Positions 2,448 through 8,949 of a DNA stretch of 8,949 nucleotides are shown piece after piece. Source of the stretch: a virus. Taxonomy: Duplodnaviria; Heunggongvirae; Uroviricota; Caudoviricetes. The stretch is from IMG/VR virus record IMGVR_UViG_2713896828_000008. One strand, written 5' to 3'. The notes beneath the pieces were generated by a model, which was not told the DNA's origin, did no database searches, and saw only the letters and a program-made list of their open reading frames with translations. Position numbers and translations under genes: made by a program. The number at the start of each line of letters is the position of its first letter. The stretch's first letter is position 1.

Positions 2448-2907
2448 TCAACGTAAGGCGTTCCTCGATATGCTGGCGTGGTCAGAGGGAACTGATAACG
2501 GACGACAGAAAACCAGAAATCATGGTTATGACGTCATTGTTGGCGGAGAGCTATTCACTGATTACTCCGATCACCCTCGCAAACTTGTCACGCTAAACCC
2601 AAAACTCAAATCAACAGCAGCCGGACGTTACCAGCTTCTTTCCCGTTGGTGGGATGCCTACCGCAAGCAGCTTGGACTGAAAGACTTCTCTCCGAAAAGC
2701 CAGGACGCTGTGGCATTGCAGCAGATTAAGGAGCGTGGCGCTTTGCCGATGATTGATCGTGGTGATATTCGTCAGGCAATCGACCGTTGCAGCAATATCT
2801 GGGCTTCACTGCCTGGGGCTGGTTATGGTCAGTTCGAGCATAAGGCTGACAGCCTGATTGCAAAATTCAAAGAAGCAGGGGGAACGGTCAGAGAGATTGA
2901 GGTATGA
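2431..2907 (+). CDS. R: endolysin R (lambda-type lytic transglycosylase), 158 aa
   Basis: [51 protein letters not shown]... matches lambda R as recalled. Start overlaps the S end by 17 nt, as in lambda. Confidence 0.95.
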
Positions 2908-3341
2908 GCAGAGTCACCGCGATTATCTCCGCTCTGGTTATCTGCATCATCGTCTGTCTGTCATGGGCTGTTAATCATTACCGTGATAACGCCATCGCCT
3001 ATAAAGAACAGCGCGATAAAGCCACGTACATCATCGCTGACATGCAGAAGCGTCAACGTGATGTAGCAGAACTCGACGCCAGATACACAAAGGAGCTTGC
3101 TGATGCTAACGCGACTATCGAAAGTCTCCGTGCTGATGTTTCTGCTGGGCGTAAGCGCCTGCAAGTCGCCGCCACCTGTGCAAGGTCAACGACCAGAGCC
3201 AGCGGCATGGGCGATGGAGAAAGCCCAGGACTTACAGCAGATGCTGAACTCAATTATTACCGTCTCCGAAGTGGAATCGACAAGATAACCGCGCAGGTTA
3301 ACTACCTGCAGGAATACATCAGGATGCAATGCCTGAAATGA
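2904..3341 (+). CDS. Rz: i-spanin Rz, 145 aa
   Basis: N-terminal transmembrane segment ([18 protein letters not shown]) then a charged coiled-coil-like periplasmic domain. Start overlaps the R stop (ATGA at 2904-2907). More diverged from lambda Rz than S and R are from their lambda counterparts. Confidence 0.9.
3103..3288 (+). CDS. Rz1: o-spanin Rz1, lipoprotein embedded in the +1 frame of Rz
   Basis: ATG at 3103 preceded by AAGGAG at 3090-3095. Signal peptide [20 protein letters not shown] with a lipobox (VSAC), then a proline-rich mature region [14 protein letters not shown]. The track ORF 3097..3288 starts at an upstream TTG; the ATG at 3103 is preferred. Confidence 0.8.
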
Positions 3342-3377
3342 TCGGGCGATGAAAACCAAAAAAAACAGGAGCAATAC

Positions 3378-3653
3378 ATGACTAAGCTTTATCACCGCAT
3401 CTCAACTTTTCTCTCTGGTTGCTGGGCGTTTATCACGTCTATTTCGTTCGCCATCTTTAGTTTCGGTAGCACAGCGTGCTCGCTTAGTCGGGGTCTGTGG
3501 CGTGCTATTTCAGCACTAGCGCCGAAATTTTTACCTGAAAAGGCTGTTTGGCGAATTGTAGAGCGAATGTGTAGTGAGAGCGTTCGCGAGAAGATTAACG
3601 TATTTGGACGTCATCCTCGAAATACAGGCGCATTGTGCAGTCCGTTACTGTAG
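3378..3653 (+). CDS. hypothetical small protein, 91 aa, hydrophobic Cys-containing N-terminus (possible membrane or lipoprotein), function unknown
   Basis: Strong SD (CAGGAGCAATAC-ATG). N-terminus MTKLYHRISTFLSGCWAFITSISFAIFSFGSTAC is a basic n-region plus a long hydrophobic stretch ending in STAC. No recognisable similarity to lambda Bor, which occupies this position in lambda. Confidence 0.5.
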   Translation: MTKLYHRISTFLSGCWAFITSISFAIFSFGSTACSLSRGLWRAISALAPKFLPEKAVWRIVERMCSESVREKINVFGRHPRNTGALCSPLL

Positions 3654-3745
3654 TCATTCCAAATCCCATCTACGGGTGGGCTTGATAATGAAACCGTGAT
3701 TTACATCCCCACAATCCGGGTATGTAAAAGATAGTTCAGGCGAGA

Positions 3746-3765
3746 ACAGATTTAACTAAATCTGT
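3746..3765. repeat. perfect 20-bp palindrome ACAGATTTA-AC-TAAATCTGT, candidate operator for a dimeric DNA-binding protein
   Basis: Arms 3746-3754 and 3757-3765 are exact reverse complements (9 bp each, 2-bp spacer). It sits in a 283-bp intergenic gap, and no U-tract follows on either strand, so it is not a simple terminator. Confidence 0.5.
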
Positions 3766-3936
3766 GCACCACCAGTTGCGGCAGTACAGCGAAACAACCC
3801 AAGCCAGAAAGTGGGGAAATAACACTGGCAGCCACTGAAAGATGAACCTCCAGCCTTATGGCAAAAAAGATTCTTTGTGGTGGCGGACTGATGGAAAGAC
3901 ATCCTAATCAAGCAACCACTCTACAGGGTCATAATT

Positions 3937-4305
3937 ATGAACGACAAGCAAATTGAAAAAGAAATCGCAGCCAAGGGTAAGGCGGCTCGCGTTACTCCTG
4001 AACACATTGCCAGCATAATCGCCAGCGAACATTACTTTACGGCCGCTGATGGTGCTCGCTTTGCTCATGTGCAGAGAAGCGAAACATACAGCGTAAAAAT
4101 CCCAGACCAGCCTGACGAGCTGGAGCTGCTGACATTCTGCGTTCTGGTGCTGAAGAATGGCTTTACGGTCACCGGGGAAAGCGCCTGCGCCAGCCCAGAG
4201 AACTTCGATGAAGAAATCGGGCGCAAGATTGCTCGCCAGAATGCTGTAAACAAAATCTGGATGCTCGAAGGTTACTTGCTGAAGCAGAAGCTAAGCGAAC
4301 AGTAG
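3937..4305 (+). CDS. hypothetical phage protein, 122 aa (possibly Gp49-like family, unverified)
   Basis: Clean ORF MNDKQIEKEIAAKGKAARVTPEHIASIIASEHYF...LTFCVLVLKNGFTVTGESACASPENFDEEIGRKIARQNAVNKIW. Resembles small conserved proteins found near lysis and packaging genes of enterobacterial prophages. Family name is from memory only. Confidence 0.6.
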   Translation: MNDKQIEKEIAAKGKAARVTPEHIASIIASEHYFTAADGARFAHVQRSETYSVKIPDQPDELELLTFCVLVLKNGFTVTGESACASPENFDEEIGRKIARQNAVNKIWMLEGYLLKQKLSEQ

Positions 4306-4408
4306 TTATTACAAAAGCCATTCCCTACAGAGTGGCTTTGATAATGGCTTATACCCTACACGGGATAACTTAACTGATATCCCTTTTAACGGATAAACGG
4401 AGCCAACA

Positions 4409-4651
4409 ATGGCAGAGATTATTCCCATGACTGAAGAACAGAAATTCCAGCTAGAGATTTACAAACTGGTCATGAACCAGAACGCAGCCGCAGAGGAAGC
4501 ATTTCAATTTATTGGCACTGACGAACTGAAGCTTGAGCTATTCAAAATTCACTTCCAGTCAGGCGGCGCTAATTCAGATATCACGACCCGCACAATCGAA
4601 GCGGTGCGTAAATCGAAGGAAGCGTTAGACCTGTTCACTACCGGAGCATAA
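4409..4651 (+). CDS. hypothetical protein, 80 aa, acidic and probably helical, first gene of the packaging operon
   Basis: SD ACGGAG 7 nt upstream of the ATG. Stop at 4649-4651 lies 2 nt before the terS ATG, suggesting translational coupling. Confidence 0.55.
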   Translation: MAEIIPMTEEQKFQLEIYKLVMNQNAAAEEAFQFIGTDELKLELFKIHFQSGGANSDITTRTIEAVRKSKEALDLFTTGA

Positions 4652-4653
4652 AC

Positions 4654-5094
4654 ATGGCGCGCCCAACAAAGTATCAAGAGGCGTATGCCGAACAGGCACG
4701 CAAACTGTGCTTGCTGGGCTACACCGATGCAGAGCTTGCTGATTTCTTCGAAGTCAGTGAGTCAACTATTAACAAGTGGAAGCTCGATTATCCTAAGTTT
4801 TCGGAGTCCATAAAAAAGGGTAAGGCCGTCGCTGATGCAGAAGTTAGTGACCGTCTTTATCAACGCGCTATGGGCTTCGTGGCTCCAGACATCGATATTC
4901 GTGTTATTGAAAACAGAATTGTCGAAACTCCGCTTGAGAAGTATTACCCGCCTGATACAACAGCTGCCATCTTCTGGCTTAAGAACCGACAGAAGGATAA
5001 ATGGCGCGACAAGGTTGATCACGAGCTAACAGGCAAAGACGGCGGCGCAATTCAGATTGAAACATCACCGATGAGCACTCTATTCGGAAAATGA
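4654..5094 (+). CDS. terminase small subunit (TerS), putative, 146 aa
   Basis: Position immediately upstream of terL with ATGA overlap (5091-5094), SD GGAG upstream, HTH-like N-terminus (GYTDAELADFFEVSESTINKW), size typical of P22/Sf6-type small terminases. Confidence 0.6.
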   Translation: MARPTKYQEAYAEQARKLCLLGYTDAELADFFEVSESTINKWKLDYPKFSESIKKGKAVADAEVSDRLYQRAMGFVAPDIDIRVIENRIVETPLEKYYPPDTTAAIFWLKNRQKDKWRDKVDHELTGKDGGAIQIETSPMSTLFGK

Positions 5095-6314
5095 CCTCGA
5101 TTAATCCTATCTTTGAACCGTTCATTGAGGCGCATCGCTACAAAGTCGCCAAAGGCGGTCGAGGTAGCGGTAAGTCATGGGCAATTGCTAGGCTGCTTGT
5201 TGAAGCGGCGCGTCGTCAGCCAGTGCGTATTCTCTGCGCTCGTGAACTGCAAAACAGTATCAGCGATTCGGTAATCCGGTTGCTTGAAGATACCATCGAG
5301 CGGGAAGGGTATTCGGCTGAGTTTGAAATTCAGCGTTCAATGATTCGTCATCTCGGTACGAATGCTGAATTCATGTTCTACGGCATCAAAAACAACCCGA
5401 CGAAGATTAAATCGCTCGAAGGCATTGATATCTGCTGGGTGGAAGAAGCGGAAGCGGTAACGAAGGAATCATGGGATATCCTGATACCAACCATCCGCAA
5501 GCCGTTTTCCGAAATATGGGTGAGCTTTAACCCGAAAAACATCCTCGACGATACCTATCAGCGATTCGTCGTAAATCCTCCCGATGATATTTGTCTGCTG
5601 ACAGTGAACTACACCGACAACCCGCACTTTCCTGAAGTTCTCCGTCTGGAGATGGAAGAGTGTAAACGCAGAAATCCGACACTGTATCGTCACATCTGGC
5701 TTGGTGAGCCAGTAAGCGCAAGTGATATGGCAATCATCAAACGTGAATGGCATGAAGCCGCAACCGATGCGCACAAGAAACTCGGATGGAAAGCGAAAGG
5801 CGCTGTTGTCTCTGCGCATGACCCATCAGATACAGGGCCAGATGCTAAAGGTTATGCATCGCGTCACGGTTCGGTAGTTAAGCGCATTGCTGAAGGTCTG
5901 CTGATGGACATCAACGAGGGTGCTGACTGGGCTACTTCGCTGGCGATTGAAGACGGTGCTGACCACTACCTGTGGGATGGCGATGGCGTTGGTGCCGGGC
6001 TACGCAGACAGACAACGGAAGCGTTCTCCGGCAAGAAAATCACCGCCACGATGTTCAAGGGCAGCGAATCGCCATTCGATGAAGATGCTCCGTATCAGGC
6101 CGGAGCATGGGCTGATGAAGTAGTACAGGGCGACAACGTTCGCACTATTGGCGATGTGTTCCGCAATAAGCGAGCGCAATTCTATTACGCGCTGGCTGAC
6201 AGGCTGTATCTAACCTGCAGAAGCTTGGTAAGGTTGCTGATAACGAGACTATTTCAAAACTTCAGTCCTATCGTGATGAGCTTGTTCGCAATGCTGGTCC
6301 AGATGGTCCGGTAA
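5091..6314 (+). CDS. terminase large subunit (TerL), C-terminally disrupted; ATPase domain intact
   Basis: Walker A VAKGGRGSGKS and Walker B-like DICWVEEAE. N-terminus resembles P22/Sf6-type large terminases as recalled. The last ~30 codons (about 6215-6314, ...LTCRSLVRLLITRLFQNFSPIVMSLFAMLVQMVR) look like out-of-frame low-complexity sequence and the ORF is about 60-90 aa short of typical TerL length. Likely a pseudogene or truncated allele. Confidence 0.85.
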   Translation: MTSINPIFEPFIEAHRYKVAKGGRGSGKSWAIARLLVEAARRQPVRILCARELQNSISDSVIRLLEDTIEREGYSAEFEIQRSMIRHLGTNAEFMFYGIKNNPTKIKSLEGIDICWVEEAEAVTKESWDILIPTIRKPFSEIWVSFNPKNILDDTYQRFVVNPPDDICLLTVNYTDNPHFPEVLRLEMEECKRRNPTLYRHIWLGEPVSASDMAIIKREWHEAATDAHKKLGWKAKGAVVSAHDPSDTGPDAKGYASRHGSVVKRIAEGLLMDINEGADWATSLAIEDGADHYLWDGDGVGAGLRRQTTEAFSGKKITATMFKGSESPFDEDAPYQAGAWADEVVQGDNVRTIGDVFRNKRAQFYYALADRLYLTCRSLVRLLITRLFQNFSPIVMSLFAMLVQMVR

Positions 6315-6997
6315 ATCTGGATTTGAAGCAATTAAGCGATCTGCGCAGCCAGTTCAGAATGGACGTGAAGGGTGAGCGACCAGTGTTACCAAACCGTTCC
6401 GATGCTGCCATTCAGCGCGTTTACAAGGCAATGACTGACGATATCAATGGTGCCATTGGTCAGAATCTTGGCAACGATACTCTCCGTAAATATCAGCAGG
6501 CCAATGCCGTCTACGCTGACGAAGCGGCGAAGCTAAAGAATACCAGGCTGAAGAATGTTCTCATGAAAGGCGACCTGACGCCGGAAGTTGTCAACAACAT
6601 GCTATTCAGCAAGAACAAATCGGAAATTAAGACGCTGTATAACTCAGTTGGTCGTGTTGGCAGGGCGCAAATGCGCAATGGCATCATTGGAAAGGCGATG
6701 GAGAAATCTGGCGGATCCCCTGACCAGTTCCTTCGGCAGCTTAACATCCTGCAAAACCAGACTGGCATCACATTTAAGGGGCAGGACGCTGCTTATCTGA
6801 AAGGATTGAAAAAATACCTTCAGTCCACTCAGCAGGCAGCAAAAGCGGCAGTAACAACACCAACAGGGCAGCAAACCATCCCGTTCATTATCGGGTATGG
6901 GACGGCAACGAACCCGGCGACAACTGGCGCAGCAGTAAGCTACGGACTTCTTACTCGCGCCTATGAGAGCGAACCATTCAGAAATGCAATGCTCTGA
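6200..6997 (+). pseudogene. 5'-deleted fragment of an unrelated phage protein (virion, ejection or tail-associated; speculative) joined to truncated terL
   Basis: Frame-2 reading frame is open from 6200 with no plausible start or SD (first ATG at 6359; the track start at 6323 is a TTG). Translation ...LQKLGKVADNETISKLQSYRDELVRNAGPDGPVNLDLKQLSDLRSQF...GQQTIPFIIGYGTATNPATTGAAVSYGLL... is coiled-coil, Q/A/T-rich and not terminase-like. Confidence 0.4.
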
Positions 6998-7196
6998 ATG
7001 GCAAATACCCCACGCGGATCAACAGCGTTTGAGAAAGCCTTGCAGCAGGCACAAAAGGCAATTAACGCGCTGACCCAAGGCGCTAAGTCTGATGCGTTGT
7101 CTGAATAGTTTCGAAAACACCAGGAACGTGCAAAAACCAAATATGTAGAACGCAATATTCAACAGATCTCTTTGCATAGACTCATCTCATAATTAA

Positions 7197-8949
<1,753 letters not shown>

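Follow-up and report, generated by a model that had tools for sequence, protein, structure and literature searches.

Organization of the locus

The window, by which we mean the whole stretch of 8,949 nucleotides that was analysed, represents a P22-like E. coli prophage in a degraded state. The site under study lies on the sense strand of the late operon, where a variable interval separates the lysis genes from the terminase genes; in P22 this interval is known to harbour a moron (pid; PMC8835761). The following features were recognized there:

3378-3653, + strand: ORF91, the upstream accessory gene (ORF list; phrog_34701 match, E 7e-57)
3654-3691, + strand: hairpin A, of the A-type (covariance model R1, fold)
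3692-3910, no strand assigned: S segment, conserved non-coding DNA from hairpin A to the cassette (alignment of 60 unique copies)
3911-4305, + strand: Gp49/Sf6-gene-66-family cassette (Pfam PF13876, E 7e-37)
4306-4347, + strand: hairpin B, of the B-type (repeat search, fold, model R1)
4348-4408, + strand: DUF2560 leader with two small hairpins (sequence, repeat search)
4409-4651, + strand: DUF2560 gene, homologue of P22 orf80 and HK620 hkbM (Pfam PF10834, E 1e-43)
4654-5094, directly after the DUF2560 gene: small terminase gene (phrog_309 terminase small subunit, E 1e-67)

ORF91 carries no annotation in an identical RefSeq locus, and its end is joined to the hairpin in five IMG/VR loci, which form one upstream flank class (U10). 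The pair A...B brackets a unit composed of the S segment and the Gp49-family gene, the latter with a leader (3911-3936) and a CDS (3937-4305) that ends in TAG at 4303-4305. Sf6 has the Gp49-family cassette; it is missing from HK620, HK97 and P22, where S leads straight to a hairpin of a variant type, B'. The S segment itself, which has no Rfam match, is also present in HK620, Sf6 and HK97 and partly in P22. Within the DUF2560 leader the two small hairpins are TTATACCC-TACAC-GGGATAA (4349-4368) and ATATCCC-TTTTAAC-GGATAAA (4377-4397), a tandem motif that other Enterobacteriaceae prophages likewise have 3' of the big hairpin. Only phage late genes and an IS100 are present in the window and in the identical annotated locus.

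Two copies of a palindromic unit

An initial annotation of this DNA had described an imperfect motif at three to four intergenic sites. Copies A and B are a genuine, non-random repeat as judged by mismatch scan, shuffles and repeat search: the 15-mer GTGGGCTTGATAATG (3676-3690) is found again at 4332-4346 with two mismatches and at no other site in the window, and its similarity, which was to be compared with background, is above chance (0.04 matches within two mismatches expected; two matches reached in 0 of 200 shuffles). A repeat search of the window independently returned the same pair, and it identified B as an inverted repeat with arms at 4308-4323 and 4330-4345. Neither the covariance model nor folding nor alignment scores upheld the two further copies (3919-3939 and 4354-4364), which leaves a count of two. 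With filters off and E<=10 the model gave no match at either position, the region around the third copy has no fold (-1.8 kcal/mol, z +0.5), and the best local alignments of the third and fourth copies to A/B fell at the 92nd and 89th percentiles, respectively, of random 40-nt windows from the same sequence. What was read as the third copy is the Gp49-family cassette's leader with its ribosome-binding region, and the fourth belongs to a separate motif, of small hairpins, in the DUF2560 leader.

The earlier alignment of A with B at their 5' ends was mis-registered: the CATTCC of B (4319-4324) belongs to the upper stem and has no homology with that of A (3655-3660). In the covariance model 3654-3691 (A, 56.5 bits, E 2.7e-10) is aligned instead with 4306-4347 (B, 29.6 bits), so that both units start at the base right after a TAG stop (3651-3653 for A, 4303-4305 for B) and not 2 to 14 nt past it, as had been stated.

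Because the initial CAT of each unit pairs with its terminal ATG, the units are imperfect palindromes and fold into hairpins, with predicted energies of -12.9 kcal/mol for A (z -2.25) and -20.6 kcal/mol for B (z -5.4); the plus strand folds better than the minus strand. Hairpin A comprises a 5' arm (3654-3670), a UACG loop (3671-3674) and a 3' arm (3675-3691), which form a lower stem CAUU/AAUG and an upper stem CCCAUC/GGUGGG. It has 13 pairs in the predicted minimum-energy fold and 16 in the consensus structure of the model, with one pair broken in the window by a G-to-U change at 3664. Hairpin B, with a 5' arm at 4306-4323, the loop CCUACA at 4324-4329 and a 3' arm at 4330-4347, is predicted to have 18 pairs and one 2x2 internal loop. 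Members of the family are 38-42 nt long and share a lower stem CCAUUA/UAAUGG, a small internal loop or bulge and a GC-rich upper stem, often capped by a C(UNCG)G tetraloop.

Conservation of the stem-loop through compensatory changes

The structure of the hairpin, its conservation through compensatory changes, its position and its orientation are all direct observations. Among 101 distinct sequences, 95.3% of cells pair compared with 85.6% in shuffles (0/500), and slid controls for covariation were 30-52% paired. Double changes occur in 8 of the 16 pairs, amounting to 135 compensatory cells in this set, which are not independent events because many of the sequences are close relatives. The lower stem is conserved and at the same time covaries (UA/UG/CG at columns 1/51; A:U to G:C at 10/41 and 12/39), and a frame-anchored scan returned members with entirely different yet complementary inner stems, such as GGGCGG/CUGCCC, GGCCACC/GGUGGCC and GCGUCUU/AAGGCGC. 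On the plus strand U:G pairs are many and mismatches few, and minus-strand matches to the model scored 22-28 bits versus 57-64 bits. UNCG tetraloops closed by C-G are present in 15 of 33 independent copies, where 0.5 would be expected. Compensatory changes, G:U pairs and UNCG tetraloops therefore indicate a sense-strand RNA stem-loop. The suggestion of a conserved regulatory signal is plausible in this form, as an RNA structure, and not in the sense in which it was originally meant.

Since MAFFT shifted the inner stems of the A and B types by one column against each other, the covariance model was built from 38-nt sequences of A geometry only, and the other types were aligned to it afterwards. 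Most loci were retrieved by patterns in which the 3' arm or the outer frame is prescribed, and the invariance of those columns is thus partly a matter of ascertainment.

Distribution and genomic context of the hairpin

Near-identical copies of the hairpin, which the initial annotation had proposed to seek in related phages, follow different genes in HK620, Sf6, HK97 and Stx phage 2851. Phage L also carries the hairpin, and P22 has the B' variant, in which A:U pairs are replaced by G:C. The A-type sequence matched 147 of 50,697 phage records, with no annotated feature under nearly all of the matches, and the hairpin was found in 34 loci from about 25 Enterobacteriaceae species. Run unfiltered on the complete genomes of P22, Sf6 and HK620, the model gave one or two copies each, all in the lysis-terminase interval, which rules out a genome-wide repeat; no copy was found in the DLP12 prophage of E. 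coli K-12.

Together these hairpins constitute an essentially unannotated family in the lysis-to-packaging stretch of P22-like and other lambdoid phages. Rfam gave no match in 3300-4700 at E<=1 and nothing relevant in the whole window at the same threshold. In the HK620 record nothing is annotated at 18881-18918 or 19134-19172, and the careful terminator annotations of HK620 and Sf6 pass over the hairpin. A full-text literature search for sequence strings of the element returned only unrelated eukaryotic primers, papers on epsilon34 and on Sf6 evolution make no mention of the lysis-terminase interval, and a BTP1 paper notes the pid locus in the interval and leaves the hairpin unmentioned.

Position and orientation were examined over 269 instances. 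An Rz homologue lay upstream on the same strand in 168 and TerL downstream on the same strand in 86, and the reverse order or opposite strand was almost never seen. An ORF on the same strand ended 0-19 nt upstream of the hairpin in 175 instances; in 87 its end fell exactly at the element. Of 25 abutting stops 13 are TAG, compared with a background of 8.8% (p 4e-8), and TGA is depleted; a weak G/T/A/G (GTAG-like) preference at -4 to -1 falls on the stop codon. An early flank scan included about seven false positives inside an Rz1-like coding region (CAATGCGAAAG...), which leave the conclusions unaffected. Where two copies are present, the order was A then B in 31 of 41 loci, and the inserts between them are of at least eight different lengths.

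The hairpin as a joint between unrelated modules

Unrelated upstream and downstream modules meet at the two edges of the hairpin. We distinguished 68 upstream and 64 downstream flank classes, recombined in many pairings, with the hairpin as the sole sequence common to them; the idea that the motif marks cassette boundaries in other genomes agrees with this comparison. As the only sequence shared by dozens of unrelated neighbouring genes, the hairpin resembles a joint for cassette swapping. For 33 copies whose flanks are unrelated to one another, the pairwise identity stays at the random level (0.23-0.29) up to position -5, climbs over -4 to -1, where the abutting stop codon lies, ranges from 0.5 to 1.0 (mostly >0.8) across the 38 nt, and falls to about 0.3 by +2 to +4 and then to baseline.

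Copies of the B-type are preceded by at least eight different sequences and in every case followed by the DUF2560 leader. When loci were anchored on this leader alone, all 149 of 149 had a hairpin of A, B or B' type immediately upstream, and no fewer than 13 different sequences are joined to these hairpins on the upstream side, all at one and the same nucleotide. A second joint, equally exact, is formed by the S segment at its 3' end (...GGAAAGACATC), with six different continuations past 3910 and no hairpin; exact joints can thus arise without one. The flank classes and sharp edges fit the initial suggestion of linkers between modules; that the hairpin would also promote the shuffling of cassettes is our inference from the sequences compared.

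Interpretation and alternative explanations

On balance, A and B are probably two diverged copies of a putative intercistronic RNA stem-loop that may double as a short conserved boundary for cassette exchange. The hairpins would be part of the late-operon transcript of the phage and take up their fold in the sense-strand RNA, each copy placed directly 3' of the stop codon of an accessory gene, where the stem-loop may serve as an intercistronic 3' hairpin that protects or defines the message end of the upstream cassette. In the prophage it would provide leaky termination or insulation at most, with the antiterminated late transcript reading through. At the DNA level, some 38 bp that are near-identical across many co-circulating phages would serve as a homology patch, or boundary sequence, for cassette exchange, because this length exceeds the minimal pairing segment of 23-34 bp of the Red-beta/RecA type (Red-beta 23-27 bp, RecA 31-34 bp; PMC3945230); the generality of the boundary-sequence hypothesis is disputed (PMC3029335).

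A GC-rich stem-loop in sense orientation right after stop codons, in an interval that is the moron locus of P22 (PMC8835761), could also be the ordinary Rho-independent terminator of inserted morons, the likeness of A and B then reflecting the general A-tract/U-tract look of terminators. We regard this as unlikely. One family member with a UUUUUU tail scores +35, a good terminator, and a related copy follows a Big_2 major-tail-like gene, a place where partial terminators or stem-loops are often annotated (compare "t coat"). However, the usual tails (CUUGAUAAUG, CUUGAUAAU or UUUGAUAAU) have just 4-5 U, and because of this poor U tract the hairpins are not canonical terminators. On a d'Aubenton-Carafa-type score, in our own implementation, the family ranges from -13 to -41 (A -41, B -24), whereas most annotated terminators of the same phages score +18 to +36. 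A scan of 3300-4700 for sigma-70 promoters and terminators made no call at A or B, and inspection of the element by eye found no properly spaced promoter. Identity over all 38 nt, including non-U positions, across genera is more than a terminator needs, and the terminator annotations of HK620 and Sf6 omit the hairpin. It is moreover kept directly 3' of a canonical terminator (GC stem plus TTTTTATTG) in four upstream classes, so that in these classes its role in the RNA is not one of simple termination and not evidently required. The two-tier helix with its internal loop or bulge, in which the bases that complete the lower stem lie past the weak U tract, would instead suit an RNase III-type processing or retroregulation site like lambda sib/tI: transcripts ending in the CUUGAUAA tail would keep only the upper stem and be stable, while those reading through would add UAAUGG, form the full 16-18-bp helix and be cut. 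The long, polycistronic, antiterminated operon and the conserved, covarying lower stem (including B versus B') agree with such a site, which we nevertheless consider rather improbable. Substrates of E. coli RNase III typically span about two helical turns (~20-22 bp), but the helix here is only ~16-18 bp and interrupted; no Rfam family was matched.

A site acting at the DNA level, either palindromic and protein-binding or a single-strand hairpin of the attC or REP kind at which a dedicated enzyme inserts or swaps cassettes, would account for the precision of the joints on either side in dozens of contexts, for a stop codon within the conserved context (TAG in 13 of 25) with the weak GTAG-like preference at -4 to -1, and for a conserved outer frame around a variable inner stem with bulged bases. 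We find it very improbable, since a duplex-binding protein would keep the half-site sequence and not permit compensatory changes, and the G:U asymmetry and UNCG loops favour RNA. Neither the annotated genes and ORFs of the window nor the sampled flanking-gene families suggest a recombinase or HUH/RAYT gene, there are just one or two copies per genome, and attC core sites (RYYYAAC/GTTRRRY) are missing from the sequence. The option, raised by the initial annotation, that the motif signals the initiation of translation or is the vestigial start of a gene (SD-like GGUGGG plus AUG) that cassette exchange left behind is hardly credible. GGTGGG-N7-ATG does look like a Shine-Dalgarno sequence and start, and in a few contexts the downstream gene shares the reading frame of the ATG. 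Yet the ATG is the pairing partner of the 5' CAT, and members with inner stems such as GCUGCCC lack an SD-like run. The terminal ATGs of A and B open just 3- and 9-codon ORFs in the window, as originally noted, and ORFs of 1-36 codons (median about 7-8) in 38 of 44 independent downstream contexts speak against the terminal ATG as a gene start.

Beyond the putative RNA stem-loop with a boundary role, the hairpin and its built-in TAG/TAA stop might form a dedicated cassette-docking site, either a phage counterpart of attC or a sib-like retroregulator doubling as one, by which a specific mechanism, and not chance recombination followed by selection, would plug genes into the late operon. The cargo would be accessory or anti-defence genes (Gp49-family, Rha, KilA-N, Tad2-like and others). 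We think this quite unlikely.

Comparison with known systems and implications

Lambdoid boundary sequences (bsq) were reportedly described by Clark et al. (2001, J Mol Biol 311:657) and by Susskind and Botstein (1978). A bsq is a short sequence at a gene or module border, with unrelated neighbouring DNA, that has been proposed as a focus of homologous recombination by which modules are reassorted (PMC3029335). The hairpin is similarly conserved among phages with unrelated flanks at gene and module borders (lysis-packaging). It differs in not being among bsq2-bsq7, which are annotated elsewhere in the Sf6 record, in being a structured, covarying RNA with a stop codon in its context, and in the number of its contexts (68 x 64 flank classes), which far exceeds those known to us for any bsq.

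Moron terminators are said to have been recognized by Juhala et al. (2000) and Hendrix et al. (2000). Like them (e.g., P22 pid; PMC8835761), the hairpin is a stem-loop 3' of late-operon accessory genes in the same interval. Unlike them it has no proper U tract, occurs as the same sequence after unrelated genes where a moron terminator is private, and persists beside canonical terminators. C(UUCG)G hairpins of T4 intercistronic regions were reportedly described by Tuerk et al. (1988). These and REP/BIME elements resemble the hairpin, an extragenic imperfect palindrome in the ~35-40 nt class of the REP/BIME definition, in lying after stops, in their UNCG loops and in a presumed protection from 3'-5' decay; in contrast to the hundreds of REP/BIME copies, there are one or two per phage genome, in one late-operon interval, and no RAYT transposase gene is suggested by the window or the sampled flanking-gene families. 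Lambda sib/tI and the T7 RNase III sites share the intercistronic location, the internal loop and a lower stem completed only on read-through, but the helix here is shorter and there is no sequence similarity. With integron attC sites the hairpin has in common a palindrome at the cassette stop codon, a conserved outer and variable inner part, bulges, and a place flanking interchangeable promoter-less cassettes. However, it measures 38-42 nt compared with 57-141 nt, and the evidence favours selection at the RNA level. The R''/L''...L'/R' core sites are absent, the two ends of the element being CCATTAC ... GATAATGG, as is an IntI, attI and Pc platform from the window and the identical annotated locus.

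Whether the mosaic joints of temperate phage genomes arise by homologous exchange at short conserved linkers or by random illegitimate joining followed by selection has long been disputed, and few concrete linkers are available to test (PMC3029335). The hairpin is a defined, sharp-bordered linker of 38 nt in model phages, Stx phages and Enterobacteriaceae prophages, at which dozens of accessory genes, some with anti-defence domains, join the packaging module. Because it is defined, sharp-bordered and widespread, the question becomes directly testable in crosses and by mutation of one small site. The hairpin is also a candidate structured RNA element, unannotated, in the late operon of well-studied phages.

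Prophage Setting and Gene Order

In 55 complete E. coli genomes a prophage remnant matches the window exactly, and 2,670 of 5,426 genomes contain parts of the window. Gene order, taken from annotation of the identical locus and from family searches, places two hairpins, A and B, in the variable lysis-to-packaging stretch of a P22-like (Lederbergvirus-type) late operon, the stretch that the pid moron occupies in P22 (PMC8835761). The features are as follows:

1067-1690, late antiterminator
2124-2447, holin
2431-2907, endolysin
2904-3341, Rz
3378-3653, 91-codon ORF, phrog_34701 (E 7e-57), unannotated in the identical RefSeq locus
3654-3691 (+), hairpin A
3692-3910, S segment, non-coding
3937-4305, Gp49/Sf6-gene-66-family gene (PF13876)
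4306-4347 (+), hairpin B
4348-4408, leader of the DUF2560 gene
4409-4651, DUF2560 gene
4654-5094, small terminase
after the small terminase, large terminase, truncated

The phrog_34701 ORF adjoins the hairpin in five IMG/VR loci as well. In 5091-8949 a large-terminase pseudogene is fused to a lytic-transglycosylase (ejection) protein fragment; next come the N-terminal part of a tailspike gene and then IS100 (istA 7415-8437). The remnant lacks the entire head gene cluster.

Two Related Hairpins in the Window

The initial annotation described an imperfect motif at several intergenic sites, and for two of these the similarity is above background: the 15-mer GTGGGCTTGATAATG (3676-3690) occurs again at 4332-4346 with two mismatches and nowhere else, where 0.04 matches are expected and none of 200 shuffles gave two. 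A repeat search recovers the same pair, B itself being an inverted repeat. The true units are palindromes, 3654-3691 and 4306-4347, in which the 5' CAT base-pairs with the 3' ATG of the same unit. Both begin on the base right after a TAG stop, not 2 to 14 nt past it, and the CATTCC of B, previously equated with that of A, lies in the upper stem, so that the earlier alignment is out of register there. Folding energies as RNA are -12.9 kcal/mol for A (z -2.25) and -20.6 kcal/mol for B (z -5.4), the sense strand giving a better fold than the antisense. The two further copies that had been proposed (3919-3939 and 4354-4364) are not supported as members of the family: neither gives a covariance-model match at E<=10 with filters off, a run whose matches in the window were A and B alone, their alignment scores reach only the 92nd and 89th percentiles of random windows, respectively, and the region around the former has no fold.

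Evidence of Selection on Structure and Strand

A covariance model of 16 base pairs was built from 32 sequences of A geometry, and 112 hits were aligned. Among 101 distinct rows, standard pairs fill 95.3% of cells vs. 85.6% after shuffling (0 of 500), and both-sided changes occur in 8 of the 16 pairs with 135 compensatory cells, the outer columns carrying little weight because the alignment is model-fitted and the searches that supplied most loci had fixed the 3' arm or the frame. Sliding the partners lowers pairing to 30-52%. Covariation of the inner stem was taken from two sources free of that constraint: a scan with the outer frame only (CATTMCAAA...TTGATAATG) returned members with wholly different yet complementary inner stems, and B differs from B', its variant in HK620, HK97, and P22, by paired A:U-to-G:C substitutions. 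This compensatory evolution shows that the hairpin itself is under first-order selection and is not a mere recombination scar. On the + strand U:G pairs are common and mismatches rare, model scores are 57-64 bits vs. 22-28 bits on the reverse strand, and C(UNCG)G tetraloops close 15 of 33 independent copies (0.5 expected). Taken together, the U:G pairs, strand scores and loops point to selection on the sense-strand RNA.

Distribution of the Family

The motif, proposed as one to look for in related phages, is present there as near-identical A hairpins in HK620 and Sf6, directly preceded by different genes (hkbL and gene 65, respectively). In Sf6 the same Gp49-type gene and then the same B hairpin follow; HK620, HK97, and P22 lack the Gp49 cassette, and the S segment joins the B' hairpin directly. 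Exact-word scans of IMG/VR with both arms showed dozens of different flanks among the matches listed. Of 50,697 phage records, 147 match the A consensus, those of HK97, L, HK544, mEp043, SPN3UB, and Stx phages among them, with an annotated feature underneath in almost none. A 24-base pattern located the element at 34 loci, which represent about 25 Enterobacteriaceae species. In HK620 and Sf6, whose detailed annotations list many terminators and, for Sf6, "boundary sequences," nothing is marked at the hairpin sites.

Hairpin A of HK97 (1600-1637) has a decayed 5' arm (GCCAAAC for GCCCATC), with a disrupted-looking hkbL-type gene before it and a truncated-looking DUF2560 gene downstream. A siphovirus-like contig (L252) carries three members on one strand: CCAATACAAAGGCCACC-TACG-GGTGGCTTTTTTAATGG has a proper U tract, and a second member, 10.7 kb farther downstream, is preceded by a major-tail-like gene. 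The enterobacterial phage hairpin, with typical flanks, also occurs on short contigs (L317, L318, L331, L334, L336) assigned to Nanosynbacter, Bacillota, or Collinsella MAGs; these are probably mis-binned phage contigs.

In the complete P22, Sf6, and HK620 genomes the model, with filters off, finds copies only in the lysis-to-terminase interval. Across 269 instances, an Rz homologue (168) or endolysin (150) lies upstream on the same strand and TerL (86) or DUF2560 (86) downstream, the opposite order or strand being found almost never; in 175 instances a same-strand ORF stops 0-19 nt short of the element, and in 87 it runs exactly up to the element. A minority of same-frame related hairpins sit after a Big_2 major-tail-like gene.

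A Joint Between Cassettes

Clustering of the 30 nt on either side of the element gave 68 upstream and 64 downstream flank classes among the loci listed, in many combinations. Among the upstream partners are Rha/ORF11CD3, KilA-N, and a Tad2-like anti-Thoeris domain; those downstream include small terminases of three kinds. Among 33 copies with mutually unrelated flanks, pairwise identity stays at chance (0.23-0.29) as far as -5, reaches 0.39-0.52 at -3 to -1 and 0.5-1.0, mostly above 0.8, across the 38 nt, and falls to about 0.3-0.4 by +1 to +4, with baseline further out. Positions -3 to -1 are a stop codon: in 25 of the 33 copies one ends no more than 2 nt from the element. Of these 25 codons 13 are TAG, a stop that ends 8.8% of the long ORFs at those loci (p 4e-8), and TGA is strongly depleted. 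This abutting stop codon (3651-3653 and 4303-4305 in the window) thus seems to belong to the conserved context, here and in related loci. In a set anchored solely on the DUF2560 leader, and unbiased as to the hairpin, all 149 loci carry A, B, or B', met at the same nucleotide by at least 13 different upstream sequences. Where two copies occur, A precedes B in 31 of 41 loci, and the insert that separates them comes in at least eight different lengths.

Neighboring Non-coding Elements

The S segment (~219 nt) recurs almost base-for-base in HK620, Sf6, HK97, and part of P22, as well as in over 90 IMG/VR loci; besides the long form there is one that is 59 nt shorter. It folds better antisense (z -2.9) than sense (z -1.2) and has no Rfam match. 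Its 3' end (...GGAAAGACATC, 3910) is an exact joint with six different continuations and no hairpin. The DUF2560 leader holds small tandem hairpins at 4349-4368 (TTATACCC-TACAC-GGGATAA) and 4377-4397 (ATATCCC-TTTTAAC-GGATAAA), and in prophages of Silvania, Pseudocitrobacter, Enterobacter, and Leclercia the big hairpin is likewise followed by the same TATCCCC-N4-6-GGGGATAA pair. On the minus strand of P22, pid (PMC3573128; PMC8835761), unannotated in NC_002371.2, and a bidirectional-looking terminator lie at 40420-40720, just downstream of the B' hairpin (40310-40348).

Proposed Function as RNA Element and Linker

A canonical terminator was considered and rejected, the tail being CUUGAUAAU or UUUGAUAAU and the terminator scan making no call. 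On a d'Aubenton-Carafa-type score (our own implementation) the hairpins reach -13 to -41 and most annotated P22, Sf6, and HK620 terminators +18 to +36; a single family member whose tail is UUUUUU reaches +35. In four upstream classes a canonical terminator directly precedes the hairpin. The poor tail, low scores, and adjacent canonical terminators favor an intercistronic stem-loop that would protect or define the 3' end of the upstream message. In the prophage there would be at most leaky termination at the hairpin, and the late antiterminated transcript would read through it. An attractive variant, by analogy with sib, is that the lower stem might form only in read-through RNA, making an RNase III substrate. 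From sharp edges, combinatorial flanks, and 38 bp of near-identity, longer than the shortest segment with which Red-beta (23-27 bp) or RecA (31-34 bp) achieves pairing (PMC3945230), we infer that the hairpin may also act as a linker for cassette exchange; the exact joint of the S segment counts against a role unique to the hairpin.

In the searchable literature, which covers neither Clark et al. (2001) nor Juhala et al. (2000), we found no description of the element and no occurrence of its sequence strings. The idea that module borders carry boundary sequences, short and conserved, goes back to Susskind and Botstein and to Clark et al. (2001) and is considered applicable to few joints (PMC3029335). 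The element fits this concept, but it is absent from the annotated lambdoid boundary sequences, is a structured RNA, and links unusually many modules.
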